Part shown: positions 1 to 19,297 of the stretch, piece after piece
Position numbering within the stretch: position 1 is the first letter of the stretch
How the letters are laid out: each line of letters opens with the position of its first letter
Source: an uncultured Planctomycetia bacterium
Lineage (GTDB): Bacteria; Omnitrophota; Gorgyraeia; CAYWPX01
Direction: 5' to 3'
Assembly: GCA_964460615.1 (NCBI GenBank)
Contig: CAYWPX010000011.1
Span: 1-56,215, forward strand
DNA length: 56,215 nt
Program-made: the position numbers and the translations under genes
Notes under the pieces: generated by a model
Databases searched by the model: none
Seen by the model: the letters and a program-made list of their open reading frames with translations, nothing else
Told to the model about the DNA's origin: nothing

Positions 1-2830
1 GAATTAACTGGGATGATCTAAAGATAATGACAGAGGCAGGCATCAACTGGGCCGACTTCGAGCCATTAACTAGTGCTGGTATCAATTGGTTAGACTTAGC
101 TTCAATGTCTGAGGCAGGAATTAATTGGGATGATATAAATACATTAACTACAAAGGGCATTAATTGGGATGATATAGAGACAATGTCCACTGCAAATATT
201 AATTGGTCTGATCTAAATACAATGACAGAGGCCGGCATCAACTGGGCTGATTGGTCGCGTTTGAGTAAATCTGGAATTAATTGGTTGAATTTGAACCAAA
301 TGAGCGTTGTTAACTGGGATGCATTGCAGGCTATGTTGGATGTCGGAGTTAATTGGGCTGATCTTAAGACTATGACAGATATGGGTATAAATTGGACTGA
401 TTTAAATGTTTTAAGCGAGGCGGGAATAAATTGGTCAGATATTAGTATTATGTCTACTTCAGGAGTTAATTGGGTTGATTGGGGTAATTTAAGTGATGCA
501 GGGGTTAATTGGGCAAACTTGAAGTCTTTCAGTGAAACCGGCGTTAACTGGGCTGGTTTACAAGCGATGCTTGACGTTGGTGTGAATTGGGATTCTTTGA
601 AAGTTATGACTGATTCTGGCGTCAATTGGTCTGATTTGGCAGTAATGTCTGATGCTGGTGTCAATTGGTCTGACTTGAGTCTTATGTCGACAGCCGGAGT
701 TAACTGGTCTGATTGGGGTAATTTAAGTGATGCAGGCGTTAATTGGGAAAATCTGAGGTCATTTAGCGAGACTGGCGTTAACTGGATTGGATTGCAGGAC
801 ATGCTTTCTTCCGGTGTGAATTGGAACAGTCTTAGGATTATGAGTGAGTCGAATGTTAATTGGTCTGATTTTGCAGTGATGAGCGAGGCTGGTGTGAATT
901 GGAGCGATCTTGAGATCTTATCTACTGCTGGGATTAATTGGCAGGATTGGAATAATCTTAGTGCGGCGGGAGTTAATTGGACTAACTTGAAAGCTTTTAG
1001 CGAAACCGGCGTAAACTGGTCAGAGCTACAAAACATGCTTGATGCCGGTGTTAATTGGGATGGCTTAAAGACTATGTCTGATACCGGTATTAATTGGAAT
1101 GATATTCGAGTTCTTTCGGCTACGGGCATTAACTGGAGTAGTTTACAGCAGATGTCTGATGTAGGGATCAATTGGAATGATATTAAGGCGATGTCTGATT
1201 CGGGGGTTAATTGGCTTGATTGGGGAGCGCTGAGTTCCGCAGGAGTTAATTGGGAAAACTTAAAGTCTTTCAGCGAAACCGGTGTTAACTGGTCAGGCCT
1301 TCAAGAGATGTTAGCTGCCGGGGTTAATTGGGACGATTTGAAGATCATGACAGAGGCAGGTGTCAACTGGGGTGATTTAACAACAATGTCAGAAGCCGGC
1401 ATCAACTGGGTTGATATTAAGTCTATGTCAATTGCCGGAGTGAATTGGTCAGATTGGGCATCTCTGAGTAGCGCTAGTGTAAATTGGGAAAACTTAAGAG
1501 CGTTTAGCCAAACCGGAGTTAATTGGGATGCTCTCCAGGTTATGCTTGGTACAGGTGTCAATTGGGACGATTTGAAGGTTTTGACAGAAGCAGGAATTAA
1601 TTGGGGTGATTTTGAATCGATGAGCAATAGTAATATCAATTGGGCAACATTGAATACTATAACTACTGCAGGTGTTAATTGGTTAGATCTGCAGGTTATT
1701 TCTGAGAGCGGGATCAATTGGAATGATATTAGAAGTATGTCAGAAGCGGGTGTCAATTGGCAGGATGTTTCAGTTTTGGGAAATGCCGGCATCAACTGGG
1801 ATGATTTCGAAAGGCTGACTAATTCGGGTATCAACTGGTCAGGACTTATGACAATTAGTGAAACCGGAGTTAATTGGGATGATTTGAAGTTGATGTCTGA
1901 TGCCGGCATCAACTGGGCGGATTGGGCAGAATTAAGTTCTGTGGGTGCAAATTGGGACAATTTAAAAATTATTAGTGATACAGGTCTAAATTGGAATGAT
2001 CTTAAAGTGATGTTGGGGCAAAACATTAATTGGGGCAATTTCCAGATTATGTCAGAAGCCGGGATTAATTGGTCTGACATCACTGCTTTGACAGAGGCAG
2101 GCATCAATTGGTCGAATTTTACAACTATGACAGAAGCGGGTATCAACTGGATAGATATGGGAAATATGTCAAATAAAGGCGTCAATTGGTTAGATATAGC
2201 TTATTTTAGTTCAATAGGTGTTAACTGGGATGATCTGAAAATAATGGCAGATTCTAATATCAATTGGATAGATATAGGTGATATGTCTGAGGCCAATATT
2301 AATTGGAATACAATAACCGTTATGAGCGAGGCAGGAGTGAATTGGGATGGTATGAAGGCCATTACAGAAGCAGGGGTTAATTGGGAAGATCTTTCAAGAC
2401 TTTCTTTAGCCGGTATTAACTGGTCTGATTTAGTTGACATGACTGACGCCGGTGTTAACTGGCACGATCTGGCAAATCTATCTGCGTCAGGTATTAATTG
2501 GGCTGATATTAACCAGTTATCCAGTGCAGGAGTAAATTGGCAGGATATGAAGGTGTTGAGCGAAGCAGGCATCAACTGGGCGGATATGAAGACGTTAACA
2601 ACAATCGGAGTTAACTGGAGCGACCTTGGCTCTATGACTAAGGCTGGTATTAATTGGAATGACATGCAGGCAATGACAGAGGCCGGAGTAAATTGGCAGG
2701 ATTTGGGATACATGGCCGGTGCAGGCATTAATTGGACCAATGTACGCGGCCAAACAATTGCAGGCATAAATTGGACTGATTTGGCTTCAATGACAGCATC
2801 CAGTATTAACTGGGAAGGGATTAATACGCT
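1..2830 (+). repeat. Coding tandem repeat: 39-nt unit (13 aa) with a 234-nt (6-unit) higher-order repeat between about 462 and 1670
   Basis: Higher-order copies start at 462, 696, 930 (this one has 7 units, 273 nt), 1203 and 1437. Each begins GVNWxDWGxLSxAGVNWxNL[KR]xFSETGVNWxxLQxML. The nt strings at 462 and 696 align at an offset of exactly 234. Confidence 0.9.
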
Positions 2831-3545
2831 TAGTAAGAATGTAGATGGCATTATAGCCGATATTGATACGATAAGGACATTGGTTGAGGGTTTGGATGTT
2901 GATGCTTTGAATGTTTCTGTAAATAATATTCAGTCATTAGTAAATGATTTACAGGGTATAGATGTAACTCAACTACAGACTTCTTTAAGTGAAATAGTAG
3001 CTCTTATGGGTTCAGAGTCAGACTCGGTTTCGGGAACCACACTCTTCTCTAAGCTTAATAGTATAGAAGGATATGCAACCTTGATCGGCTCTACCTCTGA
3101 TACAGGCTCGCAGGAAACTGTTTTTGGCAAACTAGCTTCCTCAAAGAATTACGCTTCTAACGCAGCAGACGGCATAGAGGCTTTAAGGAATGATATCGGT
3201 AAAAAAGATATTAATGAATCCAGCTTATGGGAAAGAATAAATAGGATAAATGAAAATTTAGACGCGGTTAAAAATACTGCCAATTCAGTCTTAATGACGA
3301 AATCAGACGCCGAAACCTTGACAAAAAATATTATAGATTCTATGGTAAATGCTACCAATAAGGCCGCCGAGTCTATAGGGTTAAAAATGGAAGAAATAAA
3401 AGGATTAAATAAAGATCAGGTATCAAATATTACCTTAGTTAAAAATAAGATCAAAGAGGTAAAGGAAACGCTGGATGTTATATATAAGGCAAAAACTCAA
3501 GGCGGGGAAGGGGTAATGATAAAGACATGGTTCGAAACCCAGTAA
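3..3545 (+). CDS. Giant repeat protein (probable surface fibre or adhesin), 5' end cut by the window edge. Roughly 70 tandem 13-aa G-[IV]-N-W repeats, then a ~240-aa non-repeat, helix-prone tail.
   Basis: ORF track 27..3545. The same frame stays open back to nt 3 (I-N-W-D-D-L-K-I precedes the Met at 27), so that Met is internal. Repeat unit is G[IV]NWxD[LIW]xx[ML][ST][ED][AST]. Repeats end near nt 2830 (..SINWEGINTLSKN..). Confidence 0.85.
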   Translation: MNWDDLKIMTEAGINWADFEPLTSAGINWLDLASMSEAGINWDDINTLTTKGINWDDIETMSTANINWSDLNTMTEAGINWADWSRLSKSGINWLNLNQMSVVNWDALQAMLDVGVNWADLKTMTDMGINWTDLNVLSEAGINWSDISIMSTSGVNWVDWGNLSDAGVNWANLKSFSETGVNWAGLQAMLDVGVNWDSLKVMTDSGVNWSDLAVMSDAGVNWSDLSLMSTAGVNWSDWGNLSDAGVNWENLRSFSETGVNWIGLQDMLSSGVNWNSLRIMSESNVNWSDFAVMSEAGVNWSDLEILSTAGINWQDWNNLSAAGVNWTNLKAFSETGVNWSELQNMLDAGVNWDGLKTMSDTGINWNDIRVLSATGINWSSLQQMSDVGINWNDIKAMSDSGVNWLDWGALSSAGVNWENLKSFSETGVNWSGLQEMLAAGVNWDDLKIMTEAGVNWGDLTTMSEAGINWVDIKSMSIAGVNWSDWASLSSASVNWENLRAFSQTGVNWDALQVMLGTGVNWDDLKVLTEAGINWGDFESMSNSNINWATLNTITTAGVNWLDLQVISESGINWNDIRSMSEAGVNWQDVSVLGNAGINWDDFERLTNSGINWSGLMTISETGVNWDDLKLMSDAGINWADWAELSSVGANWDNLKIISDTGLNWNDLKVMLGQNINWGNFQIMSEAGINWSDITALTEAGINWSNFTTMTEAGINWIDMGNMSNKGVNWLDIAYFSSIGVNWDDLKIMADSNINWIDIGDMSEANINWNTITVMSEAGVNWDGMKAITEAGVNWEDLSRLSLAGINWSDLVDMTDAGVNWHDLANLSASGINWADINQLSSAGVNWQDMKVLSEAGINWADMKTLTTIGVNWSDLGSMTKAGINWNDMQAMTEAGVNWQDLGYMAGAGINWTNVRGQTIAGINWTDLASMTASSINWEGINTLSKNVDGIIADIDTIRTLVEGLDVDALNVSVNNIQSLVNDLQGIDVTQLQTSLSEIVALMGSESDSVSGTTLFSKLNSIEGYATLIGSTSDTGSQETVFGKLASSKNYASNAADGIEALRNDIGKKDINESSLWERINRINENLDAVKNTANSVLMTKSDAETLTKNIIDSMVNATNKAAESIGLKMEEIKGLNKDQVSNITLVKNKIKEVKETLDVIYKAKTQGGEGVMIKTWFETQ

Positions 3546-4882
3546 TGAATAAGATTATCCAATCGGTTATTTTATTGAATGTACTGATATGTTCGGCATT
3601 CTTTTTTTGTACTCATTCATTTGCCGATGTTGTTGCAAAAATCCTTGTTACCAATACTTCTGAGACTGAACAAGAGGTCCCTGTAAAATACCCGCTTCCT
3701 GCAGGCTTGCAGAAACAGGATATTATTGATTCAGGCGGGCTGAAAAGCGAATATGATGTTAAGACTGGAAATTTTTCTATTATTGGAAATGTAAAATTGG
3801 GTCCCAAGGAAAGCAAAACCATAAGAGTAGTTATTAGGGATGTTTGGAAAATCCCTGATTCAGAAATAAACGATCTAATTGTAATTTTAGAGGACAAAGT
3901 AAAATCCGTTAAAGATGAAAGTAAAAAAATGAGAGTTCAGCTTATAGCGGAAGGCATAAGAAATAAGCTTGTTGCGATACAAAGTAAACAGTCTGAATTT
4001 GCTGATGATGCGGAAAAGAGAATGCAGATATATTCCATAAACAGAAGCAAGCTAAAGGAAATCAAAGACCAGATTTTTTCTCTGGATAACATAGCCGAGT
4101 ATGAAACTGAAGATGTTGAAAGCAAGGATACCCTGAGTCTTGTCATAGAGGCTGAAAATACTTTGGATCAAAAAATGGAAGTCCCTATCAAGTATTATCT
4201 CCCTCAAGAGATTATCCCGGATTATATTGTTGAAAAAGCTGACTTTGATCTGAAATTCGACCCTTCGAAGAACCAGTTTTTTCTTGAGAAAAATGAAAGC
4301 TTTGAACCAAATGAAAAAAAGAAATTCAATATTGTTATAAAAAATATCTGGATTATATCCGAAGAACTTATTAATAATTATCTCAAAGAGGCAGGGGATT
4401 TAAATGAAAAGCTGCAAAAAGGCGCCTATGCTCAGATCGCTTCTTCAATATTCAACGAGATAAAAAGAAATGCCGCGCAAATAGTTGATTCACAAAGAAA
4501 ATCTGAATCAATAATGGAGTATATCTCTAATTTTAAAGGCAATCAGATATGCCTTGAGAACATTAAAGATGATCTGGATAAGCTTAGAAACCTTACTAAA
4601 GAGCAGAAGAAGGAAGAGGAGCTGGCAAAAAATAAAATTAAAAACGTTCTCAGAGATATAAACGTCCTTGAAAAACTTAAAAGATTCTCAGATACCCTGC
4701 TTAAAGGAAAGCTTTCTTCAATAGGAGTATGGAAAATAATACTATTTATTATAAGTTTTGTTATAATACTTACAACGTTTTTCTACACAGTGTGGTTCAT
4801 TAATCTAAAAAAAGAAGAAAAACGACAGATTAAAAAAGTTGATACTGAAGTAAAAAAACCGGAAACTGATAATAAAGAGTAA
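3545..4882 (+). CDS. Secreted, C-terminally membrane-anchored protein with two copies of a beta-rich module, each followed by a coiled-coil segment
   Basis: The ATG at 3545 overlaps the upstream TAA (TAATG). It yields MNKIIQSVILLNVLICSAFFFCTHSFA, a signal-peptide-like N-terminus. The track start at 3527 adds 6 aa. C-terminal TM: IGVWKIILFIISFVIILTTFFYTVWFI. Module 1 ..VTNTSETEQEVPVKYPLP..IRVVIRDVWKI.. parallels module 2 ..EAENTLDQKMEVPIKYYLP..FNIVIKNIWII.. Confidence 0.7.
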   Translation: MNKIIQSVILLNVLICSAFFFCTHSFADVVAKILVTNTSETEQEVPVKYPLPAGLQKQDIIDSGGLKSEYDVKTGNFSIIGNVKLGPKESKTIRVVIRDVWKIPDSEINDLIVILEDKVKSVKDESKKMRVQLIAEGIRNKLVAIQSKQSEFADDAEKRMQIYSINRSKLKEIKDQIFSLDNIAEYETEDVESKDTLSLVIEAENTLDQKMEVPIKYYLPQEIIPDYIVEKADFDLKFDPSKNQFFLEKNESFEPNEKKKFNIVIKNIWIISEELINNYLKEAGDLNEKLQKGAYAQIASSIFNEIKRNAAQIVDSQRKSESIMEYISNFKGNQICLENIKDDLDKLRNLTKEQKKEEELAKNKIKNVLRDINVLEKLKRFSDTLLKGKLSSIGVWKIILFIISFVIILTTFFYTVWFINLKKEEKRQIKKVDTEVKKPETDNKE

Positions 4883-4888
4883 TTTCTG

Positions 4889-4897
4889 TGATATAAT
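4889..4897 (+). promoter_or_regulatory. Candidate extended -10 element (TGATATAAT) 25 nt upstream of atpA
   Basis: TGnTATAAT match in the 39-nt gap before 4922. AT-rich DNA produces many chance matches. Confidence 0.3.
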
Positions 4898-4921
4898 ACC
4901 GATAATTGTTTTGGAGAATAA

Positions 4922-6448
4922 ATGTCTAATTTACAGTATAAAGAATATGGAGTTGTTAGAAAAATCAGAGGTTGTATTGTTACTGTTACAGGCCTCGAAA
5001 ATTGTATCAATGGCCAGCTTGTCAGGTTCGGCTTTGGTACGGAAGGTACGATAATTGGTTTTGATGAGGAAGAAACTCATGTACTTTTGGTAAAGGAAAA
5101 AGAATCTATTAAGACCGGCGATGCTGCCATAATGACCTTAGAGCCTTTTAATACCCCGGTAGGGAAAAATTTTGTAGGGAGGGTTGTAAATGTATTAGGC
5201 GAGCCAATGGATAACTTAGGTCCTTTGGCCCCTGATGCCTATTTTCCGATATTTGCGGATTCCCCGTCAGTTATGCAAAGAGAGGTAGTAAAAACTACTC
5301 TTGAGACGGGTATTAAACTGATAGATACTATGATACCTATTGGCAGAGGTCAAAGACAGTTGATACTTGGCGATAAAATGACAGGCAAAACTACCATAGG
5401 TACCGATATTATCTTAAATCAAAAAGGTAAGGATGTAATTTGTATATACTGTTGTATAGGAAAAGGCAAAGCGGCTCTAGATAGGGTTGTTAACCTGTTT
5501 AAGAGTAAAGATGCATTCCAGTATACTATTGTTGTTGCGGCAATGGCAGGCATTTCTCCCGGACAGCAGTATCTTGCACCGTACATTTCTTGCTCGCTCG
5601 GAGAGTACTTTATGAAAAAGGGCGGGCATGTATGCGTTATTTTTGATGATTTTACTAAACATGCGTGGGCTTATAGGGAAATATCACTTCTTTTGGGCAG
5701 GCCTCCCGGTAGGGAATCCTATCCCGGTGATATATTCTATCTCCATTCGCGTATGATAGAAAGAGCTGCTAAGCTTTCCAAAGAACTTGGCTTAGGGTCA
5801 ATGACTTTTTTCCCTATAGTCGAGCTTTTGGAAGGAGACCTTACGGGATACGTCTCTACAAATCTTGTTTCCATGACAGATGGACAGATATATCTCAGCA
5901 CTCCGCTTTTCAGTGAAGGTTTCCGTCCTGCGGTTGACAGCGGATTATCTGTATCTCGTATCGGTAATAAAGTCCAGTGGCCGGCAATGAAGAAGGTCAG
6001 CAAGTCCCTTAGGTTAGAGTATCTTCAATACAGGGATATATTAAAGACCTCAAGGTTAAAAGCCGGAGGCAAGAGCGAGGAGTCAATGGAACAGATGAAG
6101 GGCGGAGAAGTGTTGTCAGAGCTCCTTAAGCAGGATAAGGATAGCCCCTTAGATATGGAAGAAGAGATAGTGCTTTTTTATGGGTTAAGTAAAAAATATT
6201 TTCAAAGTCTAAATAGCAGTCAACTCAAAAAACTCCAAAAAGAGATTTATAAATACGCTAAAACAAATTGTCCCGATGCTATGAAAAAGCTTACTGAGAC
6301 CAAAGACCTTACACCTGATATAGAAGCGGAATTTGACAGAATTTATCAGGATTTTCTAAAGATATTGGAAGCCGAAGCATCAAGCGAAGAAAAAGAAGAG
6401 ATGGAAAAGGAAAGGAAAGTTAAGGCCGAAGCCCAGACTGTGGCCTAA
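4922..6448 (+). CDS. atpA: F-type ATPase alpha subunit (divergent)
   Basis: GRGQRQLILGDKMTGKTT matches the alpha P-loop region (canonical GDRQTGKT). 508 aa. GGAGAA RBS upstream. Confidence 0.9.
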   Translation: MSNLQYKEYGVVRKIRGCIVTVTGLENCINGQLVRFGFGTEGTIIGFDEEETHVLLVKEKESIKTGDAAIMTLEPFNTPVGKNFVGRVVNVLGEPMDNLGPLAPDAYFPIFADSPSVMQREVVKTTLETGIKLIDTMIPIGRGQRQLILGDKMTGKTTIGTDIILNQKGKDVICIYCCIGKGKAALDRVVNLFKSKDAFQYTIVVAAMAGISPGQQYLAPYISCSLGEYFMKKGGHVCVIFDDFTKHAWAYREISLLLGRPPGRESYPGDIFYLHSRMIERAAKLSKELGLGSMTFFPIVELLEGDLTGYVSTNLVSMTDGQIYLSTPLFSEGFRPAVDSGLSVSRIGNKVQWPAMKKVSKSLRLEYLQYRDILKTSRLKAGGKSEESMEQMKGGEVLSELLKQDKDSPLDMEEEIVLFYGLSKKYFQSLNSSQLKKLQKEIYKYAKTNCPDAMKKLTETKDLTPDIEAEFDRIYQDFLKILEAEASSEEKEEMEKERKVKAEAQTVA

Positions 6449-6452
6449 AATT

Positions 6453-6704
6453 ATGAGCGTACTAGGAAAATTCAAACTAAAAGTCATTAACCCTGACAGA
6501 ATGCTTTTTCAGGGAGATGTAACAACTGTTTTTTTGCAGGGGGATACTTGTGAGTTTGAGTTATTGGCTTATCATTATCCGGTCCTAAGCTTATTAAGGC
6601 AAGGCCAGGTTGTTATTGACTGGTCCCAATATATCCCGATAAGAAAAGGCTTAGTAAAATTTTTTAAAAATGATTGCACAATATTGGTGGAGTTAGACGA
6701 ATAA
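6453..6704 (+). CDS. atpC: F-type ATPase epsilon subunit, short form (N-terminal beta-sandwich only)
   Basis: KLKVINPDRMLFQGDVTTVFLQGDTCEFELLAYHYPVLSLL resembles the epsilon N-terminal domain. Only 83 aa, so there is no room for the C-terminal helical hairpin. Confidence 0.65.
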   Translation: MSVLGKFKLKVINPDRMLFQGDVTTVFLQGDTCEFELLAYHYPVLSLLRQGQVVIDWSQYIPIRKGLVKFFKNDCTILVELDE

Positions 6705-6707
6705 CAT

Positions 6708-6920
6708 ATGAATACATTAATCATATTATTTATCATGTTTATTGTTGTCGGCGGGCCGTCTGCGGTAATCGGTTTTTTAGGTTACGCGACTATTAAAGCC
6801 CTGGGGAGGAATCCGTCAGCCGCTTCAAAAATATTTATGGGGACGGTTTTGCTACTAGTTTTTGTCGAAGCAATATCTATTATTGCGCTTCTAGTTATAT
6901 TCCAGCTTTTTGGTACATAA
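6708..6920 (+). CDS. atpE: F-type ATPase c subunit (rotor ring proteolipid)
   Basis: 70 aa, two TM helices joined by the polar loop GRNPSAAS. Carboxylate in helix 2 (LVFVEAISII). Confidence 0.8.
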   Translation: MNTLIILFIMFIVVGGPSAVIGFLGYATIKALGRNPSAASKIFMGTVLLLVFVEAISIIALLVIFQLFGT

Positions 6921-6943
6921 AATTTTAATAGAAAGGCTATATT

Positions 6944-7681
6944 ATGTTTTTATTACAATTGATAATAGTCATGACGATAATGTTTGGTGTTGTTATTTTT
7001 ATATTAAAGAAAATGATGTATGGGGATACGCAAAGTGCAGTCAACCGCCTTAATGAATCTTATCAGGAGATTGAGAAAAAGAAACAAGAGATGGCTACTC
7101 TTATGCAAAAGATGGAGGAAGAATATAAGATAAAGAAGGAGGAGGGCGAGAAAATTGCTCTGCAGCTAAAAGACGCCGCTGAAGCGGAGATGCGCGAAAA
7201 ATATGATTCTTCAATTAAAAAAGCCAAAGATGAAGCCGAGAGGATTATCACTGACGCTGCCGGGATGAAGGACAGGATCCGAGAAGAAATTAGAAAAGAG
7301 GAGGACCTCAAGGAAATTTCTTATTGTGAAGAGCTTATTTCAGATACTCTAAAAAAGATCATTAGGGATAAATTTGATGATATTCTTATAGAAGATTTTG
7401 TCAATGACCTTAAAGATATCGATATGAGCCATGTGCCGCCTGCTATTAACGAAATAGAGATAGTCACCCGGGCTAAGTTGGCTGATGGTATTAAAAATAA
7501 GATTGTTGAATCAGTAAACAAAAAGACCCAGAAAAAAATAACTTTTAAAGAGACCATAGATCAAAAAATTATCGGCGGCGTAATTATTAAATTCGGAAGC
7601 CTTGTTTTAGACGGTAGCATTGCCGGAAAACTCAAAGAAAATACCATAGTAAAGAAGAAAAAGATAGACGAAAAAACCTAA
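6944..7681 (+). CDS. atpFH: F-type ATPase b subunit fused to a delta/OSCP-like C-terminal domain
   Basis: Single N-terminal TM (LLQLIIVMTIMFGVVIFIL), then a long charged coiled coil as in subunit b. The C-terminus ..IIGGVIIKFGSLVLDGSIAGKLKEN matches the delta C-terminal signature (GG..i..G....DgS....L). Confidence 0.7.
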   Translation: MFLLQLIIVMTIMFGVVIFILKKMMYGDTQSAVNRLNESYQEIEKKKQEMATLMQKMEEEYKIKKEEGEKIALQLKDAAEAEMREKYDSSIKKAKDEAERIITDAAGMKDRIREEIRKEEDLKEISYCEELISDTLKKIIRDKFDDILIEDFVNDLKDIDMSHVPPAINEIEIVTRAKLADGIKNKIVESVNKKTQKKITFKETIDQKIIGGVIIKFGSLVLDGSIAGKLKENTIVKKKKIDEKT

Positions 7682-7687
7682 AAGTTT

Positions 7688-8545
7688 ATGAGTAAAACTG
7701 CAAAAATCAAGTCAGATCTTGACGATATAACTAGTCTCGTTGAAATTATTCAGATCCTTAAAGACGTGGCCTCAAACCATTTTTATAATACTGCAAAAAG
7801 AAAAGAAAGGTTTGAGGAATTTGCTGAGGTTTTTACCGATTTTTTTAGGATGGTAAGTTTAGCAGAGGCAACAAGCCCGCTTGTTCATAGCCAGGTAGAT
7901 AAGGTAGCAATACTTGCTCTTACATCCGAAGGCGGGTTTATGGCTGAAATGACTGCAAAGGTTGTAAGGACCGCAGTGGCAGAGGCAGAGAAGTTTGATA
8001 CACACGAGTTTATTGTCATAGGTCAAAAGGGCGTCGAGAAGATGAGGACCATGACAACAAAAAAATTTACCAGTTTTGTAGGGATAGAAGATAAGGGGCT
8101 ATTTAAAACTGCCCTCGAGGTTAAAGATTATATTATACAACAGGTAGTCGAAGGGAACTATGGAAAGGTTTACGGAGTATATCCTAGGGCTAAGACAATA
8201 AATTTAATAAAGCCTTTTTCAGTTAAATTGCTTCCATCGGAAGAACTTATTACCAGACAAATTGAGATAAAAGATACGATTGAAAAGGTTATTGTTGAGT
8301 CAGATCTTAATAAAATTATACATTACCTTGCGGATATCTGGCTTACCTGCCGTCTTTATGAAATGCTTGAAGACTGTGTTGTGGCAGGTTTTGCTGCCCA
8401 AGCACAGCAATTAGAAGCAAGTTTGGAAAGGCTTAAAAAAGATAAGAAAGGGATTGCGCTTAATTTTGCTAAAGCAAAAAAAGGCGATATTGACAAAAGC
8501 TTAAGAGAGGTTTTTACAGCCTCGCTTATTACTGGAAGAAGGTAA
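7688..8545 (+). CDS. atpG: F-type ATPase gamma subunit (divergent)
   Basis: 285 aa. Position between b/delta and beta. N- and C-terminal helices typical of gamma (SDLDDITSLVEIIQILKDVAS..; ..LERLKKDKKGIALNFAKAKKGDIDKSLREVFTASL). Confidence 0.7.
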   Translation: MSKTAKIKSDLDDITSLVEIIQILKDVASNHFYNTAKRKERFEEFAEVFTDFFRMVSLAEATSPLVHSQVDKVAILALTSEGGFMAEMTAKVVRTAVAEAEKFDTHEFIVIGQKGVEKMRTMTTKKFTSFVGIEDKGLFKTALEVKDYIIQQVVEGNYGKVYGVYPRAKTINLIKPFSVKLLPSEELITRQIEIKDTIEKVIVESDLNKIIHYLADIWLTCRLYEMLEDCVVAGFAAQAQQLEASLERLKKDKKGIALNFAKAKKGDIDKSLREVFTASLITGRR

Positions 8546-8548
8546 TAA

Positions 8549-10069
<1,521 letters not shown>

Positions 10070-12361: not shown

Positions 12362-12367
12362 TAAAAC

Positions 12368-13585
12368 ATGGCAATATTTGAATATAAAGCAAAAAGAGGC
12401 CCTGAAGATATCTTAGAAGGCAAGATGATAGCCGATACTTCTGATGAAGTTGTAGAGAGGCTGAATGAGAAAGGTTATGTCGCATTGTCAGTCAAAGAAA
12501 AAGGTATGCAAGAGGGTGAACCTGGCCCTTTAATCAAAAGGCAATCAGCAAGATTAAGCTTAAAGGAAAAAATATTTTTTTCTAGGCAGCTTGCCAGTCT
12601 ATTGAAATCAGGTATACCTATTTTAAAAGCTCTTCAGATCCTTTCGGAGCAGACAAGTAATAAGAAATTCAGTGTTTGTGTTGATAATATGGCAAACGAC
12701 ATAAAAAATGGCGAAACTCTTTCCTCTAGTTTAGGAAATTATTCAAAGATTTTTTCACCGTTTTATTTAGCAATGGTAAAAGCCGGAGAAGACAGCGGAG
12801 AGGTAGATACTTCTTTATTTAGGGTTACCGATTATTACTTAAAACAGGCGGAATTTAACTCTAAAATCAAGACGGCGTTAGCTTATCCTATCCTTATATT
12901 GGTTGTAGGATTTTTTACCGTATTATTTATGTTTACGAATGTTATTCCCAAGATCATACCCTTATTTTCTGATTTAGGAGCCGAGCTTCCGCTTCCTACC
13001 AAGATTCTTATTTCAACCAGTGATTTTATTAGGAATCATTGGTTTAACTTGAGTCTTTTTATTATAATATTTTTAGTAATTGTTTTTAGGGTTTCAAAGA
13101 ATAAACTTTTGAATGCTTATTTTTCCATGATCAGGCTGAAAACCCCGGTTTTAGGTGATTTTATATTAAAAGCAGAATTTGCACGTTTTGCCAGGGCTAT
13201 GGAAATGGCGCTTCACGACGGTATTCCCATTATTAAGGCTATGGATATCTCAATACCTATTATTGGGGAGGAAATAATAAAAGAGGAGCTCTTAAGATCA
13301 AGGGATGAGCTAGAAAAAGGAAGTTCTTTGGGAGAAGTCCTTAAATTATCAAGAGTTTTTCCTCCTTTTGTATTTAATCTAATAAGTGTTGGAGAAGAGT
13401 CGGGTAAAGTCGAAGAGTCATTTACCAATATTGCTGAGTCGTACGAAAGTGAATGTTCCGATGCTTTAAAAATTATGACCACATTGATTGAACCTATAAT
13501 GGTATTAGGAGTCGGGCTTGTGGTAGCTTTTATAGTGAGTGCGGTGCTTTTGCCTATATTCCAACTTAATTTTGTAACCCAATGA
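12368..13585 (+). CDS. gspF: GspF/PilC-family inner-membrane platform protein
   Basis: 405 aa. Duplicated T2SSF-type domain architecture with 3 TM segments. Position directly after gspE. Confidence 0.85.
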   Translation: MAIFEYKAKRGPEDILEGKMIADTSDEVVERLNEKGYVALSVKEKGMQEGEPGPLIKRQSARLSLKEKIFFSRQLASLLKSGIPILKALQILSEQTSNKKFSVCVDNMANDIKNGETLSSSLGNYSKIFSPFYLAMVKAGEDSGEVDTSLFRVTDYYLKQAEFNSKIKTALAYPILILVVGFFTVLFMFTNVIPKIIPLFSDLGAELPLPTKILISTSDFIRNHWFNLSLFIIIFLVIVFRVSKNKLLNAYFSMIRLKTPVLGDFILKAEFARFARAMEMALHDGIPIIKAMDISIPIIGEEIIKEELLRSRDELEKGSSLGEVLKLSRVFPPFVFNLISVGEESGKVEESFTNIAESYESECSDALKIMTTLIEPIMVLGVGLVVAFIVSAVLLPIFQLNFVTQ

Positions 13586-13603
13586 TAATGAAAGGAACAT
13601 TAA

Positions 13604-14062
13604 ATGCTAAAAGTTTTATCGAGACAATTTTTAAAAGGCAGATTTATTGGATGCAATAGGTCAGCGTTTACGCTTATCGAGATACTGTTAGTGGTTGTGA
13701 TCATAAGTGCGCTGGCTACGATGATATTACCTAGGCTTGCCGGAAGGTCGGAGAAAGCGAAAGAGAATATTGCCAAGACCGATGTAATTGCTAATATTCC
13801 AACGGCACTTAAATTATATGAGCTGGATAATGGTAATTACCCCACTACAGAACAGGGCCTAAAGAGCCTAATAACAAAACCTAGCACCCAGCCAGAACCG
13901 CAAAACTGGAATGGGCCCTATTTAGACAGAAAATCCCTTGCGGATCCATGGGGAAGAGAGTATGTGTACAAGTGTCCAAGTTCCCATGGCCTTGATTATG
14001 ATCTTTATTCATTAGGGAAATCCGGTAAAGATGATGATAAGGTTATAGGGAATTGGCAATAA
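13604..14062 (+). CDS. gspG: Major pseudopilin, GspG type
   Basis: Prepilin N-terminus ..RSA/FTLIEILLVVVIISALA. GspG body motifs LYELDNGNYPTTEQGL, GPYL, DPWGREYVYKCP, YDLYSLGKSGKDD. Confidence 0.85.
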   Translation: MLKVLSRQFLKGRFIGCNRSAFTLIEILLVVVIISALATMILPRLAGRSEKAKENIAKTDVIANIPTALKLYELDNGNYPTTEQGLKSLITKPSTQPEPQNWNGPYLDRKSLADPWGREYVYKCPSSHGLDYDLYSLGKSGKDDDKVIGNWQ

Positions 14063-14066
14063 TTAC

Positions 14067-14474
14067 ATGACAAATAGGACAAATATATATATCCCTACTT
14101 CCAAAATTAGAGGATTTACTTTCCTAGAAGTTCTTCTTGCCATTTCAATTTTCTCTTTCGGGGCAATTTATATTTTTACGATTTTTTCAAATACAAGCTC
14201 GGCCATGAGGCATCTCGGCAATAGAGCAACTGCTTTTCTGATCATGGATACAAAGGTTTGGGACGCTAAAGCGTATCTGGATACAAGTATTATCCCGGGT
14301 GGTTATAATTTATCGAGTAAAGAAGGAAATAACCCTGAATTTAATTGTAAATCCAATCTTTCTAGGTTAGAGCAGTACTCAAATATGTACAAACTGGATT
14401 TAAACATATCCTGGCGTGAACAGAATAAAAACATCAGTCTTAATAGAATTATCTATTTAAAGAAAAAAACATAA
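14067..14474 (+). CDS. Minor pseudopilin (GspI/H-like)
   Basis: Prepilin-type N-terminus IRG/FTFLEVLLAISIFSF. 135 aa. Confidence 0.6.
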   Translation: MTNRTNIYIPTSKIRGFTFLEVLLAISIFSFGAIYIFTIFSNTSSAMRHLGNRATAFLIMDTKVWDAKAYLDTSIIPGGYNLSSKEGNNPEFNCKSNLSRLEQYSNMYKLDLNISWREQNKNISLNRIIYLKKKT

Positions 14475-14475
14475 T

Positions 14476-15087
14476 ATGATCTATAAAAACAAAACTAAAA
14501 ACTCTTCGTTTACTCTTATAGAGCTTCTTTTATCCATCTCTATTCTTGCTGTAGCAGGGATTGGGGCATATAGAGTGTTATCAAGCGGTATATCCTTTCT
14601 GAAGTGGCAGAAGAACTTTCGTTTGCATGGAGATGTCGATATATTTTTCGAAAAATTTGCATATGATATCCGTAACAGCTGTTCGATTAATAATATAAAT
14701 TTTAGCGGGGATAAAACTAAAGCAATATTTGCTTTTCATGATCCGTCAGTCAATTTTCTTACAACAAAAGATGACTTTGATCTAAAGAAAGATATTGATT
14801 TGCTTTTATACAAAGTAGAGTATATTTTTGTCGCTGATAAGAAAGAATTAAGGCGAAGAGTGTATAGCTTGAAATCAGGAAAGCTTTTAAAGGACTCACG
14901 TATATTATCAGGAGTAGATAATTGCACATTTAGTTATTTTAGATTAGATAATTTTACAGGTAAAATATCAAAAATCAGCTTTTTGAACGGTTTTTTCCCC
15001 ATGGGCGTAGAGATTACAGTAAACCTGATGGAAAATAATAAAACCGTAACCCTGATCGATATTATTGATGTTCCGCAAATCTCATAA
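14476..15087 (+). CDS. Minor pseudopilin (GspJ-like)
   Basis: Prepilin-type N-terminus KNSS/FTLIELLLSISILAVAG. 203 aa. Confidence 0.6.
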   Translation: MIYKNKTKNSSFTLIELLLSISILAVAGIGAYRVLSSGISFLKWQKNFRLHGDVDIFFEKFAYDIRNSCSINNINFSGDKTKAIFAFHDPSVNFLTTKDDFDLKKDIDLLLYKVEYIFVADKKELRRRVYSLKSGKLLKDSRILSGVDNCTFSYFRLDNFTGKISKISFLNGFFPMGVEITVNLMENNKTVTLIDIIDVPQIS

Positions 15088-15089
15088 TC

Positions 15090-16130
15090 ATGATTAATAT
15101 TAACAATAAATCTACTTCCGGCAGTGTTCTGATATTGGTTTTATGGGTTATTATATTTCTCTTATTCATGGTAATAAGTTCTTCACAATTTACCCGGGAT
15201 GCCATGAAGGTTTCGGAAAAGATCGAGGCTAGAAAAAAACTTTATGATATTGCTTACTCAGGCATATTAGTCTCGATTGAAACGCTCAAGAATTTAGATA
15301 AAAAGGACAAGGATAGGGGCGTTGATTCATTGAATGATTATTGGGCAAATGATCCGGGCGTTTTTAAGGATATGAGAATAGGAAATGGCTATTTTGACAT
15401 CATTTATAATTATCCCGATAATAAGGGAGGATTATCAGAGATAAAATATGGGCTTCTCGATGAAGATAGAAAAATTAATGTAAATTTTGGTAATTTCGAT
15501 ACGCTGAAAAATATTTTTATTAACGTAGCCGGTTTGAATGAAGATAAATCAAAATTAATTGCCGGCGCTATAATTGATTGGAGGGACGGAGACAATATCT
15601 TTTACTCTGAGGAAGAGGGTACTATGAGCGAAAGTGCTTATTATTCCAATCATGGCTATGACTATATGCCGGCTAATAGTGATTTTAAAATGCTCGAAGA
15701 ATTATTGCTTATTAAGGATATAGATCTAAAAACCTATTTAAAGATAAGAGATTATTTGACAGTTTATTCAAATGGGCAAATAAATATAAATACCGCTTCG
15801 AATAAAGTTCTTGCTTCCTTGGGGGTCCAAGAAGATCTTGTTGAAAAAATAATTGTTTTTAGGGCTGGGCCGGATGCTGTTGAGGGTACTTCAGATGATA
15901 ATCTTTTTACGGTTACGGATCAGATAGTGTCAAAACTGGCTTTGCATACCGGTCTTACTAATGAAGAAATTGAAAATTTAAGTAAGTATATGGTAGAAGG
16001 GTATTTTAGTGTTACTTCTGATTATTTCAGGATATTTTGTATAAGCAATTTGGATAAAGGGAGTTTATATGGTAGAATTGTTTGTGTATTTAGTAAAGAT
16101 GGTCATATAAAATATTGGAGTTATCAGTAA
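15090..16130 (+). CDS. gspK: GspK-like minor pseudopilin
   Basis: N-terminal GSVLILVLWVIIFLLFM lacks Glu5, as in GspK. Also D-W-R-D-G-D, ELLLIKDID, TVYSNGQININTAS..VL..LG helix-hairpin-helix-like segment. Confidence 0.7.
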   Translation: MININNKSTSGSVLILVLWVIIFLLFMVISSSQFTRDAMKVSEKIEARKKLYDIAYSGILVSIETLKNLDKKDKDRGVDSLNDYWANDPGVFKDMRIGNGYFDIIYNYPDNKGGLSEIKYGLLDEDRKINVNFGNFDTLKNIFINVAGLNEDKSKLIAGAIIDWRDGDNIFYSEEEGTMSESAYYSNHGYDYMPANSDFKMLEELLLIKDIDLKTYLKIRDYLTVYSNGQININTASNKVLASLGVQEDLVEKIIVFRAGPDAVEGTSDDNLFTVTDQIVSKLALHTGLTNEEIENLSKYMVEGYFSVTSDYFRIFCISNLDKGSLYGRIVCVFSKDGHIKYWSYQ

Positions 16131-16137
16131 AGAGCTT

Positions 16138-17589
16138 ATGATTAATCTATTTGGCGGAAAAAGAAACTTCATCAGTATTGAAATTGATGAAAAGTATATT
16201 AAGATGGCTCATACAAGAGTCTCTGATGGCAAAAATGAAGTTATGGATTTTTTTGTCCATGACGTATCCAATGCGCCAGAAGATAGCATTGCAAATTTAA
16301 TAAAAGATTTTGTTAAGAAGGAACGCATTCCTAGCCCTAATGTAGTAAATATTATTCCTTCTAATTATGCAATATCGAAAAATATCGAGATCCCTTCCGT
16401 TGATAAAAAAGAGATCAAGGATATCCTTGATCTTCAGGCGGGGCGCCATACGCCTTATTCAAGGGATGAGATCGTGCTTTCTTACTCAGATGTAGGTATT
16501 TCGCATGGCAGATATACTAAAATATTGTTGGTGATCGTCAAAAAAGATATTGTGACGAAACGCTATGATATCCTGAAAAAAGGTTCACTAAAAGCAAATA
16601 GCGCAATTTTATCATCCGAAGCTGTATCAAAATTATGCTATAAGGCAAGCCCCGACAGGCCGAAGAATAAGCCGATCGTTGTGATACATATTGATAGCAT
16701 TAATTCGGATTTTACAGTCTTAGTTAATAACAAAAACCTTTATCTCAGATCTATACCTATAGGTTCTATCTATCTTCTTTCGAGGCCCGAAGAATCACAT
16801 AAGTTGTTTTTAGACGAAATAAAAAAATCATTGGATTCTTATCAAGCGGAAAATATTGAGGCTAGCCCTTATAAAATTTATTTTGCGGGAGCAGGTGAGG
16901 GCGTTACTAATTTAATAGCTTCGGAGATTACCAAGCTGACAAATATCCCTGCAGATGTATTGCTCTATCAAAAGATCTTTTCAATGCCTCAAAAAGCTTT
17001 AGAAACGCTTCAGAAAAATAAATTCGTCTCGCCTTTATCTGTAATAGCCGCATCGGCGATTATTAACGAAATAGACCTCGACCTTGTCCCTGAAGAGGTC
17101 AGGATCAGAAAAGAGCTTAAAAAAAGAGGCAAAAAGATTACGGAACTCGGAATACTTTTTATGTCATGTCTTGTTATTTTTTGCGGGATATTTGTTACAA
17201 ATCTTTTCCTAAAAAAAGCGTATCTTCAGAAAATATCAGTTAGTTTTACAAAAGAAGAAAAAGAAGCGCTATCCCTTACCGAGATATCGGAAAGAACCGG
17301 GACAGCTAAGCGTTTTATAAATCAGAAAGGTGAATCTCTGTTTGTTCTTACGGAGCTTTTTAACGCGATGCCAAAAGAAGTATTTTTAAGTTCAATCGCG
17401 TTGAATCCGGACAATTCACTCGTTGTTACCGGTACAGCGGATAGTATGTCGAGAGTATTTTCTCTAGTGACTGATTTGGAAAATAACAAGTTATTTAAAA
17501 ATGTAAAAGTTGATTTTACTAAAACCAAACGAATCAAAGATCAGGAAGTCGCAGACTTCGGATTGACATTTTTTTTAGAAGGTAAATAA
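16138..17589 (+). CDS. PilM-PilN fusion / GspL-like assembly protein (cytoplasmic actin-like domain, one TM, periplasmic domain)
   Basis: 483 aa. N-terminal ISIEIDEKYIKMAH as in the PilM first beta-strand. TM GILFMSCLVIFCGIFVTNLFL near aa 335-355. Position in the cluster. Confidence 0.6.
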   Translation: MINLFGGKRNFISIEIDEKYIKMAHTRVSDGKNEVMDFFVHDVSNAPEDSIANLIKDFVKKERIPSPNVVNIIPSNYAISKNIEIPSVDKKEIKDILDLQAGRHTPYSRDEIVLSYSDVGISHGRYTKILLVIVKKDIVTKRYDILKKGSLKANSAILSSEAVSKLCYKASPDRPKNKPIVVIHIDSINSDFTVLVNNKNLYLRSIPIGSIYLLSRPEESHKLFLDEIKKSLDSYQAENIEASPYKIYFAGAGEGVTNLIASEITKLTNIPADVLLYQKIFSMPQKALETLQKNKFVSPLSVIAASAIINEIDLDLVPEEVRIRKELKKRGKKITELGILFMSCLVIFCGIFVTNLFLKKAYLQKISVSFTKEEKEALSLTEISERTGTAKRFINQKGESLFVLTELFNAMPKEVFLSSIALNPDNSLVVTGTADSMSRVFSLVTDLENNKLFKNVKVDFTKTKRIKDQEVADFGLTFFLEGK

Positions 17590-17590
17590 T

Positions 17591-18268
17591 ATGCCTAATC
17601 CTATAGAAGCTTTTATATCGAGCCTTTCATCAAAAGAAAAGAAAGTTTTGTATATTGCCTCCGGAGTGGTGCTTTTAGCGCTTGTGGATAGGCTTGTGAT
17701 CGGTCCCGTATTAAAAGAGTCGCATATGACCGAAGAGAAGATCGCAAACGATATAATGAATGCCAAGAAAAACACTCTTTTTTTGCAATACGAAGGGAAG
17801 ATAAAGGCGGAAGATAAAGACTATGAGATATACTATACGAAAGAAGGGTATACAGAGGAAGAGTTGATTGCAACCTTTTTAAGCGAGGTTGAAGATTTTG
17901 CAAAATCAGCGAAGATTGCCCTTACCAATATAAATCCTGTAATTAGTGAGGAAAGAATGGGTTATACTCAGTTTAGCCTGACTATAGAATGTACTGGGTT
18001 AATGAAGAGTATTGTAGATTTTATTTATAATATAGATAGTTCCAAAAAACCAATAAAGGTAAGTTATTATAATATTTTGCCTAAGGACAGGAATACTTAT
18101 GAAGTTAAATGTACCATTACAATTATAAAAGCAATAATAATTCCAGGGCAAAATAGCGCAGTTAAGATCTCTGAATCAAAAAAAGAGACCCCAAGGGAAG
18201 CCCCAAAAGATGCTTCTAATAGCTCCGGTAAGGATGGGGCTGCTGTACCTAATGCCGAGAGCAAATAG
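17591..18268 (+). CDS. PilO/GspM-like bitopic assembly protein
   Basis: Single TM (VLYIASGVVLLALVDRLVIGPVL) then a ~150-aa periplasmic domain. 1-nt gap from the upstream gene. Assignment rests mostly on context. Confidence 0.4.
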   Translation: MPNPIEAFISSLSSKEKKVLYIASGVVLLALVDRLVIGPVLKESHMTEEKIANDIMNAKKNTLFLQYEGKIKAEDKDYEIYYTKEGYTEEELIATFLSEVEDFAKSAKIALTNINPVISEERMGYTQFSLTIECTGLMKSIVDFIYNIDSSKKPIKVSYYNILPKDRNTYEVKCTITIIKAIIIPGQNSAVKISESKKETPREAPKDASNSSGKDGAAVPNAESK

Positions 18269-18292
18269 TGCTAATAGTAAATTGGTGAAAAT

Positions 18293-19297
18293 TTGATTAG
18301 CTATAAAAAGATTTTCATAATATCGGTTCTGTGCGTGCCCATTTTTGCGACGTTGGCGTTTTCTGCGGTTATCAGCCCAACCCTAATAGAGATGGGTAAA
18401 GAGGCTGAGGGTTTATTTCAGAAGGGGTTTTATGTCGAATGTGAACTTCAGTGTAAAAAAATTCTGGAAATAGATCCAAATTTCTTCTATCCTTATTATG
18501 TTTTGGGAAAGATATATGCCCTGAGGGAGGGGCAAGAGGAGAAGTCGATCTTATATTTTTCCAAGGCAGTCGCTCTTAGCCCCGGCCAGATAGATATTTA
18601 TAACAGTATCGCCTATTTAAATAATAAACTCAACAGATTCGATGAAGCGATATCCATTCTCAAACAGGGCCTTAAATTGGATCCGACCAATTTTGAGATG
18701 AACCTTAATCTAGGCATAACATATTTGGTTAATAAACAGCAACCTTATGAAGCTGTTGAGTATCTTAAAGCAGCTGAATCCAAAAAGCCTGCTTATGACA
18801 GGGTAATTTATCTAGTTGGGGTAGTGTACTTTTTGACAAACCATGAAGGTTTAGCTGTGGATTATGTTACTAAATTAAGGAAAATAAAGAGCGATTTTCT
18901 TGCGAATCAATTGGAAGCTATTATGAGGCCGAAGGAAGAGATGAAACCTGCCACGGTAGATATGGCAGAGGTTATGAAAAACTATATTAGCCAACCTAAA
19001 TCCGGCCAGCAGATTATTACCCAAGATGGTAAAATAATGGTAATGCCGCAGGGCATCAAACCCGGTAAAATTACAATAGGCCCCGCTACTACGACCGGAA
19101 CCGGTGAAGGCAAGATTACTATTAAGCAGGAATACAGACAAAAAACCGCGGAAGATGATAAGCCGTCCGGCGAAACAAACAAAACTATTGAAAAGTCCAA
19201 TAGACCCGCAAATAGTAATGAAAAAGACCTCGAAGCCGATGAGCCAGCCTCAAATATTGATACCTCTGATCAAGATAAGCCCCTTGTTGCTAATTAA
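18293..19297 (+). CDS. TPR-repeat protein with signal/anchor sequence and low-complexity C-terminal tail (possible pilotin or PilF/PilW-like factor)
   Basis: TTG is the first canonical start after an in-frame TAA at 18278. N-terminal hydrophobic IFIISVLCVPIFATLAFSA. TPR-like repeats (..YYVLGKIYAL.., ..YNSIAYLNNKLNRFDEAI..). Confidence 0.6.
   Translation: MISYKKIFIISVLCVPIFATLAFSAVISPTLIEMGKEAEGLFQKGFYVECELQCKKILEIDPNFFYPYYVLGKIYALREGQEEKSILYFSKAVALSPGQIDIYNSIAYLNNKLNRFDEAISILKQGLKLDPTNFEMNLNLGITYLVNKQQPYEAVEYLKAAESKKPAYDRVIYLVGVVYFLTNHEGLAVDYVTKLRKIKSDFLANQLEAIMRPKEEMKPATVDMAEVMKNYISQPKSGQQIITQDGKIMVMPQGIKPGKITIGPATTTGTGEGKITIKQEYRQKTAEDDKPSGETNKTIEKSNRPANSNEKDLEADEPASNIDTSDQDKPLVAN

Follow-up and report, generated by a model that had tools for sequence, protein, structure and literature searches.

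Rotary F-type ATPases are textbook ion-coupled enzymes, and the locus described here raises the question of what such an enzyme is doing in a train of genes for surface adhesion and pilus-type secretion. The train occupies positions 3-19297 of a 56-kb stretch of DNA (contig CAYWPX010000011.1, positions 1 to 56,215, referred to from here on as the window) from an uncultured bacterium that is labelled Planctomycetia and placed by GTDB in the Omnitrophota class Gorgyraeia. Its 17 open reading frames (ORFs), all on the + strand, encode in turn a repeat protein that is a candidate adhesin or fibre (g01), an anchor protein (g02), the subunits of an F-type ATPase, and components resembling those of type II secretion systems (T2SS) and type IV pili. 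The explanation that we favour is that the ATPase subunits, which are not accompanied by a subunit a, would form a non-chemiosmotic rotary module, driven by ATP hydrolysis and dedicated to a machine for adhesion or secretion at the envelope. Judged from gene content, domain composition and comparison of loci, this reading as a whole stands in our estimation about midway between doubtful and probable. We are much more confident that the genes form one functional module, and less confident of the identity of the rotor's partner.

Gene calls are those of the ORF list of the window, and protein identities are based on profile matches to Pfam and NCBIfam (Table 1). The 16 junctions along the train, taken from the ORF coordinates, measure in order -1, 39, 4, 3, 23, 6, 6, 3, 6, 18, 4, 1, 2, 7, 1 and 24 nt; the first is a TAATG overlap (3543-3547) between the genes of the repeat and anchor proteins, and the stop of beta (10069) and the start of gspE (10073) are 3 nt apart. 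These values are identical to those given in an earlier reading of the window, made from its letters without database searches (the sequence-only reading). A consensus scan of the train found four + strand terminator-like sites (8507, 8748, 11188 and 17336), each of them intragenic, and none in any intergenic gap, which agrees with the earlier statement that the gaps hold no terminator-like hairpin. Rfam and tRNA scans of the window gave no matches, which argues against the involvement of a riboswitch or attenuator. The possible extended -10 element that had been pointed out in the 39-nt gap before alpha is a perfect match to the TGnTATAAT consensus, and the same consensus recurs 35-47 nt 5' of the alpha start in three diverged relatives (L004, L006 and L081). 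The retention of this candidate element despite the diverged spacers lends support to separate transcription of the ATPase-pilus part. A same-strand run of 17 genes could by itself arise by chance in a compact genome, and synteny is the test that discriminates.

For this test, 80 loci were fetched around homologues of the beta subunit (10 kb to either side of each match; individual loci are cited by their L-numbers), and all 17 window proteins were mapped onto each. The closest relatives of the window beta come from Omnitrophota metagenome-assembled genomes (MAGs) and single-cell genomes, at 76-83% identity. Adjacency was counted in the 64 Omnitrophota-type loci that have at least 1.5 kb of sequence 3' of beta, and in 63 of these gspE follows directly 3' of beta in the same orientation, the median distance from hit to hit being 115 nt (in L022 the two genes overlap by 1 nt). 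The adjacency spans beta identities of 49-83% and three orders of the atp genes: that of the window (alpha-eps-c-bdelta-gamma-beta), a variant of it in which alpha is present as two tandem paralogues, and eps-c-bdelta-alpha-gamma-beta. The arrangement is lacking in four outgroup loci, namely a canonical operon, two presumed N-ATPase operons and one Nitrospirota locus. Upstream, homologues of g02 lie directly 5' of the atp genes in 25 of the 36 loci with enough flank, and the large ORFs that precede g02 share a C-terminal module. The adjacency across related MAGs is thus not due to chance, and the view that the train is a unit, put forward in the sequence-only reading, is upheld by the persistence of beta-gspE through three atp orders, by the anchor gene and by the shared module.

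Within this set, the loci of the L007-L025 group (for example L007, 4769-7652) carry the two tandem alpha paralogues ahead of eps-c-bdelta-gamma-beta-gspE, and in the second alpha of L007 the arginine finger is replaced by Ile (SMSI vs SVSR). Many of the MAGs with tandem alphas are labelled Kiritimatiellia, Verrucomicrobiota or Planctomycetia, not Omnitrophota; the system may reach other lineages of the Planctomycetes-Verrucomicrobia-Chlamydiae (PVC) group, or those MAG labels may be wrong. One close relative, L083, has an additional ORF of 241 aa with no Pfam family between the anchor gene and alpha (4522-5247).

The catalytic part of the ATPase appears competent. Alpha has its Walker A motif and arginine finger, and beta has Walker A and the catalytic Glu motif (GERIREGNE) behind a low-complexity N-terminal extension of about 50 aa. 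Gamma, epsilon and c all score above their Pfam cut-offs, so that the central stalk and c-ring of an F1Fo enzyme are recognisable, while gamma, epsilon, delta and c fall far under the NCBIfam cut-offs or have no match there and are therefore strongly divergent. Epsilon is without the C-terminal helices, which in canonical bacterial enzymes inhibit hydrolysis. In place of a complete peripheral stalk, with a b dimer and a full delta seated on the alpha N-termini, there is one b-delta fusion, which consists of an N-terminal transmembrane (TM) helix, a coiled coil and the C-terminal part of delta/OSCP only, the N-terminal domain of delta being missing. Alpha for its part is without the first ~20 canonical residues, i.e. 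the delta-binding tail, and its alignments to PDB chains begin at about chain residue 22; this matches the loss of the delta N-terminal domain, which is the domain that the alpha tail binds.

Subunit a is absent from the train and from the 56-kb window in Pfam and ORF scans, and there is no room for it within the train, since every gap is 39 nt or less. Across about 75 related Omnitrophota-type loci, a crude test for TM helices found no ORF with several such helices in the atp part of the cluster; as a positive control, the canonical Erysipelotrichaceae operon L078 shows atpI/atpB-like ORFs with four TM helices. The c subunit has two TM helices, the loop ALGRNPSAA and Glu54 in TM2, and is well conserved. 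The TM2 carboxylate is indispensable in ion-coupled enzymes, yet 8 of the 55 aligned homologues have Q, T, A or G in place of the Glu; these 8 belong to several subgroups, and their clusters are otherwise intact. As several lineages do without it, the carboxylate of the c-ring appears to be dispensable in this family. The description of the ATPase as energy-converting in the sequence-only reading is therefore doubtful if meant in the chemiosmotic sense, given the lack of subunit a in the train and in about 75 clusters and the loss of the c carboxylate in several lineages.

The genes that follow beta encode a T2SS-like machine. The assembly ATPase scores equally with the gspE model (TIGR02533, 545) and the pilB model (TIGR02538, 544), both below cut-off (676 for TIGR02538). 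The major pseudopilin is of the GspG type, not PilA, and is the only pilus component over its equivalog cut-off. For GspE, GspF and the I/J/K-type minor pseudopilins, the Gsp models are best or joint-best, all under their equivalog cut-offs, and the counterparts of L and M are the PilM-PilN fusion and the PilO-like protein; the two smaller minor pseudopilins have GspI and GspJ as their best, weak matches (TIGR01707, TIGR01711). The PilM-PilN fusion has a GspL-like architecture, in which an actin-like domain in the cytoplasm is joined by a TM helix to a domain in the periplasm. The train closes with a periplasmic TPR protein, homologues of which hold the same position in close loci. The secretin GspD, GspC and the prepilin peptidase GspO were not found in the window, nor were the retraction ATPase PilT or PilP/PilQ. 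The secretin, GspC and the peptidase may be encoded elsewhere in the genome.

The genes at the 5' end of the train appear to belong to the same system. The part of g01 that lies within the window contains 73 copies of a 13-residue unit, xAG(V/I)NWxD(L/I)xx(M/L)(S/T), and ends in a helical module (~2838-3542) whose last residues are ...MIKTWFETQ. In L081 the homologous protein, truncated where the contig stops, reaches at least 2889 aa with some 200 repeats. In every contig examined (the window, L004, L005, L006, L019, L028, L081 and L082) the contig ends inside the gene with the 13-residue repeat, which probably breaks short-read assemblies. In distant loci the large ORF 5' of g02 has other repeats or Ig-like domains, but the same C-terminal helical module, with the motifs TLFGK/R-L and terminal ...PV(V/I)xxW(F/L)E. 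A search of 1.8 billion representative proteins found this module in 49 proteins, always at the extreme C-terminus, those that are full length having 1292-3065 aa. One full-length homologue, P0140, combines a Sec signal peptide with Ig-like domains of the Kre9/KNH type; a second protein with the module has a ConA-like lectin domain together with GINW repeats. The g01 family thus looks like a set of modular exported adhesins, whose domains vary and whose conserved end would serve for docking.

Some further proposals for g01 and its relatives were considered and set aside. A Lysostaphin_N match on g01 (56.1, cut-off 60) and an Ntox33 match on the protein P0153 were rejected as artefacts of the 13-residue repeats. 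A short-helix solenoid fold is not claimed for g01, as the single-sequence AlphaFold2 (AF2) model is unreliable (predicted local distance difference test, pLDDT, 49.8). Nor is g01 counted among the giant (>20 kb) ORFs of Omnitrophota: with full-length relatives of 1.3-3 kaa and a closest relative of at least 2.9 kaa it is long, not shown to be giant.

The anchor protein g02 is predicted by its AF2 model to consist of a signal peptide, two successive units of a beta-sandwich and a three-helix bundle, a long helix, a C-terminal TM helix and a charged tail, LKKEEKR. The TM helix is the only membrane-spanning one, and the tail, which is short and conserved, is predicted to be cytoplasmic. A Foldseek search with the AF2 model gave no PDB match at E<0.001.

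Domains of cyclic diguanylate (c-di-GMP) signalling recur in these loci. In the window the PilZ domain of GspE carries RRVHLR and NISGGG, corresponding to the motifs RRxxxR and NxSxxG, and the GspE-PilZ fusion is found in 18 loci, i.e. the window and 17 others. A disjoint set of 15 loci (L047, L048, L051, L053-L059, L063-L065, L068 and L076), which are without g02, has a gene for a REC-GGDEF diguanylate cyclase directly 5' of eps-c-bdelta-alpha-gamma-beta, in the place where the anchor would be, often with a Peptidase_MA_2 gene beside it (for example in the clusters of L048, L051 and L065). The window itself encodes a TPR + Peptidase_MA_2 protein 5.7 kb 3' of the train, of a family that also occurs inside distant clusters, and a stand-alone PilZ protein on the opposite strand. 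The PilZ domain on GspE, the REC-GGDEF genes and the nearby PilZ and Peptidase_MA_2 genes make control of the machine by c-di-GMP likely. Binding of c-di-GMP through the MshEN domain of GspE is not claimed, since the N-terminal sequence agrees poorly with the first half of the published motif.

Table 1. Features of the gene train and other genes of the 56-kb window (positions in the window; scores in bits with the model's cut-off where given)
Feature	Position	Strand	Matches and remarks
Repeat protein g01 (adhesin or fibre), C-terminal 1180 aa	3-3545	+	N-terminus beyond the left edge of the window
Anchor protein g02, 445 aa	3545-4882	+	No Pfam or NCBIfam family; AF2 model pLDDT 78
Candidate extended -10 element, TGaTATAAT	4887-4895	+	In the 39-nt gap before alpha; consensus match only
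Ribosome-binding site, GGAG	4911-4914	+	3' of the candidate -10, before alpha
Alpha subunit, F-type, 508 aa	4922-6448	+	PF00006/PF00306; TIGR00962 (atpA) 513, cut-off 484
Epsilon, beta-sandwich domain only, 83 aa	6453-6704	+	PF02823 positions 1-78 of 80; TIGR01216 positions 2-79 of 130, below cut-off
c subunit, 70 aa	6708-6920	+	PF00137 28.6, cut-off 24; no NCBIfam match
b-delta fusion, 245 aa	6944-7681	+	PF00213 positions 102-167 of 172; weak PF00430; TIGR01145 positions 94-167
Gamma, divergent, 285 aa	7688-8545	+	PF00231 79.9, cut-off 39.9; TIGR01146 63, cut-off 194
Beta subunit, F-type, 505 aa	8552-10069	+	Pfam; TIGR01039 (atpD) 548, cut-off 463
GspE/PilB-type assembly ATPase, 762 aa	10073-12361	+	PF00437, PF05157, PF07238; MshEN-type N-domain, C-terminal PilZ
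GspF/PilC platform protein, 405 aa	12368-13585	+	PF00482 twice; TIGR02120 328, cut-off 424
GspG-type major pseudopilin, 152 aa	13604-14062	+	PF08334, N_methyl; TIGR01710 137.6, cut-off 88.85
Minor pseudopilin, 135 aa	14067-14474	+	N_methyl
Minor pseudopilin, 203 aa	14476-15087	+	N_methyl
GspK-like minor pseudopilin, 346 aa	15090-16130	+	PF21687 (T2SSK_1st); NF037980 80.8, below cut-off
PilM-PilN fusion, 483 aa	16138-17589	+	PF11104, PF05137, TIGR01175
PilO/GspM-like platform protein, 225 aa	17591-18268	+	Weak PF04350 and PF10741, below cut-off; position conserved in loci
Periplasmic TPR protein, 334 aa	18293-19297	+	TTG start; TPR families; weak TIGR02521, NF033762 (PilW/Tgl-like)
STT3-like oligosaccharyltransferase, 823 aa	19302-21773	-	
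TPR + Peptidase_MA_2 protein	24976-26172	+	
Glycosyltransferase and associated genes	26185-32972		
Stand-alone PilZ protein, 162 aa	33255-33743	-	
Glycogen/carbohydrate phosphorylase-family gene	34973-37456	+	
Glycogen/carbohydrate phosphorylase-family gene	41480-43489	+	
Six-gene exporter cluster	46584-52820	+	
923-aa protein	53140-55911	+	CBM9-like, Ig/cadherin-like domains

The sequence-only reading did not recognise this combination as a described system. The co-location of the ATPase with pili has in fact been known since 2023, when Seymour et al. (Nat Microbiol, PMC10066038) reported a non-respiratory "symbiotic" F-type ATPase beside clusters for type IVa pili (T4aP) in every Omnitrophota class; among the Velamenicoccia they found it in 56 of 111 species, Ca. 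Velamenicoccus archaeovorus LiM being one of these, and in 57 of 66 contigs it lay within 10 kb of T4aP. The window belongs to this locus type: it comes from Omnitrophota, and divergent F-type ATPase genes lie well within 10 kb of GspE/PilB-type pilus genes, here at 3 nt. It differs from the published description in that the paper speaks of T4aP and the window pseudopilins are of the GspG/I/J/K type, and in the affinity of its alpha. The main text of PMC10066038 does not contain the terms "subunit a", "a-subunit", "c-subunit" or "atpB", and its passages on the locus do not deal with subunit content, an upstream adhesin, an anchor protein or c-di-GMP domains; among the listed rows of its KEGG Orthology table, K02111 and K02112 occur without K02108/09/10/13/15 in one genome, and in another the set is complete. 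What is new here is the anatomy at the level of subunits and the extended list of parts. A Tad/T2SS-like locus beside giant genes has also been described (West-Roberts et al. 2023), in a paper that does not mention ATP synthase; the window cluster is a different one and is not identified with it.

According to PMC10066038, the alpha subunit of the "symbiotic" ATPase groups with Mycoplasma type 2/3 ATPases, whereas the alpha and beta of the window score with atpA and atpD and fail the Mycoplasma models. With the models of MMOB1660/1670 and MSC_0619/0618, the window alpha/beta reach 400 (cut-off 600), 434 (850), 288 (520) and 408 (570) bits; they fail NF045863, NF045858, NF045936 and NF045934, and all of these scores are under those of atpA/atpD. 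In the PDB ranking of the window beta, every canonical F1 beta stands above the beta of the Mycoplasma mobile G1-ATPase (9io5_A). By similarity scores, which are not a tree, the published Mycoplasma type 2/3 grouping is thus not reproduced. The likeness to the gliding motor of M. mobile (G1-ATPase, MMOB1660/1670) and to the type 2/3 enzymes is of another kind: these, as the window enzyme would be, are F1-derived, non-chemiosmotic ATPases that are tied genetically to very large surface proteins, have a beta with an N-terminal extension and are thought to power movement or attachment on host cells. To our knowledge the Mycoplasma clusters have no recognisable c, epsilon or b-delta and do not encode membrane rotors, and we know of no pilus or T2SS genes in them.

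Comparison with other known systems brings out how the window ATPase is built. With the canonical F1Fo enzyme (atpIBEFHAGDC) it shares alpha, beta, gamma, the N-domain of epsilon, c, and elements of b and delta, with the catalytic motifs intact. It differs in having no subunit a or atpI, no C-terminal domain on epsilon, the C-terminal part of delta fused to a single b and no tail on alpha, as well as in its gene order (A-C-E-F/H-G-D) and its place inside a secretion/pilus operon. As in N-ATPases (atpDCQRBEFAG), a long b, here of ~245 aa, takes the place of a separate delta, to judge by a weak full-length alignment to TIGR03321. N-ATPases have subunit a, AtpQ/AtpR and an ion-binding c, whereas the window has no a, Q or R genes and fails TIGR03324 (477, cut-off 750) and TIGR03305 (478, cut-off 752). 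The window beta is similarly related (46% identity) to the beta of L079 and of L080, which we take to be N-ATPase operons from gene order only (alpha ~3 kb 3' of beta). The remainder of the train has the GspE/PilB, GspF/PilC, GspG, I/J/K-like, PilM-N, GspM/PilO-like and PilW/Tgl-like TPR proteins of T2SS and T4aP, and differs from these systems in the components missing from the 56 kb, in the PilZ domain on GspE and in its link to an F-type ATPase.

If no subunit a is present, there is no ion path, and we infer that the ATPase most likely runs in the hydrolysis direction only, as an ATP-driven motor. A catalytically competent alpha3beta3, uninhibited by an epsilon whose C-terminal domain is missing, would be held by a membrane-anchored stator, i.e. 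the single stalk formed by b and the C-terminal domain of delta, and the gamma-epsilon-c rotor would turn against it. Such a motor would serve the neighbouring T2SS-like machine (GspE/F/G/I/J/K, the PilM-N fusion and the GspM/PilO-like protein) as well as the Sec-exported adhesin or fibre, which carries variable heads or hundreds of 13-residue repeats on its conserved C-terminal module. The recipient of its work could be the inner-membrane platform or else, by way of g02, the adhesin, whose C-terminal module is probably held at the inner membrane by this single-pass periplasmic protein. The outcome would be an attachment organelle that is deployed or actuated on host or prey cells under c-di-GMP control. 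Only tentatively do we suggest that the complex is a novel type of ATP-driven rotary machine of the envelope, in which the rotor acts as a mechanical gear, through g02 and/or the GspF/GspL platform, on the pseudopilus and a fibre of several thousand residues, powering attachment, movement or prey contact in bacteria that are ultra-small and predatory or parasitic.

Several observations weigh against a dedicated, a-less motor. A subunit a could be encoded elsewhere in the genome. The Glu in TM2 of c is kept in 47 of the 55 homologues, including that of the window (E54), as would fit a ring that is still ion-coupled, and alpha and beta, by exceeding the atpA and atpD equivalog cut-offs, are ordinary enough for the housekeeping models. 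The pilus part is locally incomplete, and g02 is missing from a subclade. The adjacency of beta and gspE is broken in just two loci: in L029 (7196-10380) beta is followed by the transhydrogenase genes pntAB, and in L045 (6739-10657) a 4.6-kb insertion, which encodes an opposite-strand response regulator and PAS hybrid histidine kinase plus a Sel1-repeat protein, splits beta from gspE. The link is thus separable, and co-transcription of the atp and gsp parts, which the sequence-only reading took the spacing to suggest, is not obligatory. Mantel correlations of the beta identity matrix with those of GspE, GspF, PilMN and g02 (r of 0.82-0.92, against 0.87 with alpha) fit inheritance as a unit but are not proof of coupling, and with no unlinked control gene in the comparison they may simply follow the species phylogeny. 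Much of this would suit a housekeeping F1Fo ATP synthase with its subunit a elsewhere, in which the gene order is merely conserved within the phylum and there is no functional coupling: the best PDB matches are to canonical F1, split atp operons are known in other bacteria, and the two exceptional loci show that the parts can come apart. We nevertheless consider such an enzyme unlikely: about 75 clusters are without subunit a, the carboxylate of c was lost on several occasions, epsilon, delta and alpha have each lost a canonical segment, the minor subunits score far under the NCBIfam cut-offs and the adjacency survives rearrangement within the atp part. PMC10066038 also sets a separate "respiratory" clade of ATPases apart from the "symbiotic" one in its account of the locus, and according to a 2026 preprint most Gorgyraeia have V/A-type ATPase subunits, with the F-type gamma detected in only 30 of 176 complete genomes.

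The absence of subunit a would also fit an engine of protein export or unfolding instead of a torque motor. [quoted passage not shown] In FliH-FliI-FliJ an F1-like ATPase, equipped with a stalk resembling b-delta and a rod resembling gamma, sits on a secretion apparatus, and the architecture proposed for FliH is that of a b-delta fusion, as found here; moreover, the window-type ATPase is always beside a secretion-type apparatus, and in many loci also beside an exported protein of >1000-2900 aa. FliI is, by contrast, a homo-hexamer without c-ring or epsilon that works with a different secretion system, while a hetero-hexameric alpha3beta3 combined with gamma, epsilon and c is typical of rotary enzymes that generate torque. 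The adhesin homologue P0140 has an ordinary Sec signal peptide, and we know of no precedent for a c-ring as a protein conduit; we rate an export engine as quite improbable. That independent transcription units of unrelated function lie together by chance could draw on the frequency of short gaps and same-strand runs in small genomes and on the candidate internal promoter before alpha, but this is refuted for practical purposes by synteny, the adjacency being kept in nearly every locus over a wide range of beta identity and having been reported independently (PMC10066038).

The rest of the window adds some observations on the surroundings of the train. The train ends at 19297, where the STT3-like oligosaccharyltransferase gene begins in convergent orientation. 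This gene, together with a group of genes further 3' (two GT2 glycosyltransferases, a UDP-GlcNAc 2-epimerase, a methyltransferase, an LPG-synthase-TM-like protein and two proteins of 585 and 699 aa without family), may represent a locus for protein or envelope glycosylation. Of the two phosphorylase-family genes, one is full length and the other divergent, and genes for two response regulators, a PDZ protein, a DUF3108 protein and a YacP-like NYN protein are interleaved with them. The exporter cluster consists of an OEP outer-membrane factor, an HlyD-type adaptor, two ABC ATPases and two ABC-2 permeases, and the 923-aa protein 3' of it may be a further carbohydrate-binding protein of the cell surface. 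Nearly all 2-kb bins have a positive GC skew, with the cumulative skew rising steadily, and most genes of the window are on the + strand, which fits a window located on a single replichore with the + strand leading.

If the favoured reading is true, a widespread variant of the F-type ATPase has dropped the ion channel and kept the c-ring, and a rotary ATPase has been turned to mechanical or export work. This would bear on the relations among F/V-ATPases, type III export ATPases and the gliding motors of Mycoplasma, as well as on the means by which ultra-small Omnitrophota attach themselves to other cells and exploit them. Should the rotor indeed work as a gear, this would be a second independent recruitment of F1 rotary catalysis for surface mechanics after that in Mycoplasma, and the first in which the c-ring is kept; it may then extend to other PVC lineages. 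The anatomy of the locus makes the role of an a-less F-type ATPase in a pilus/secretion operon directly testable.

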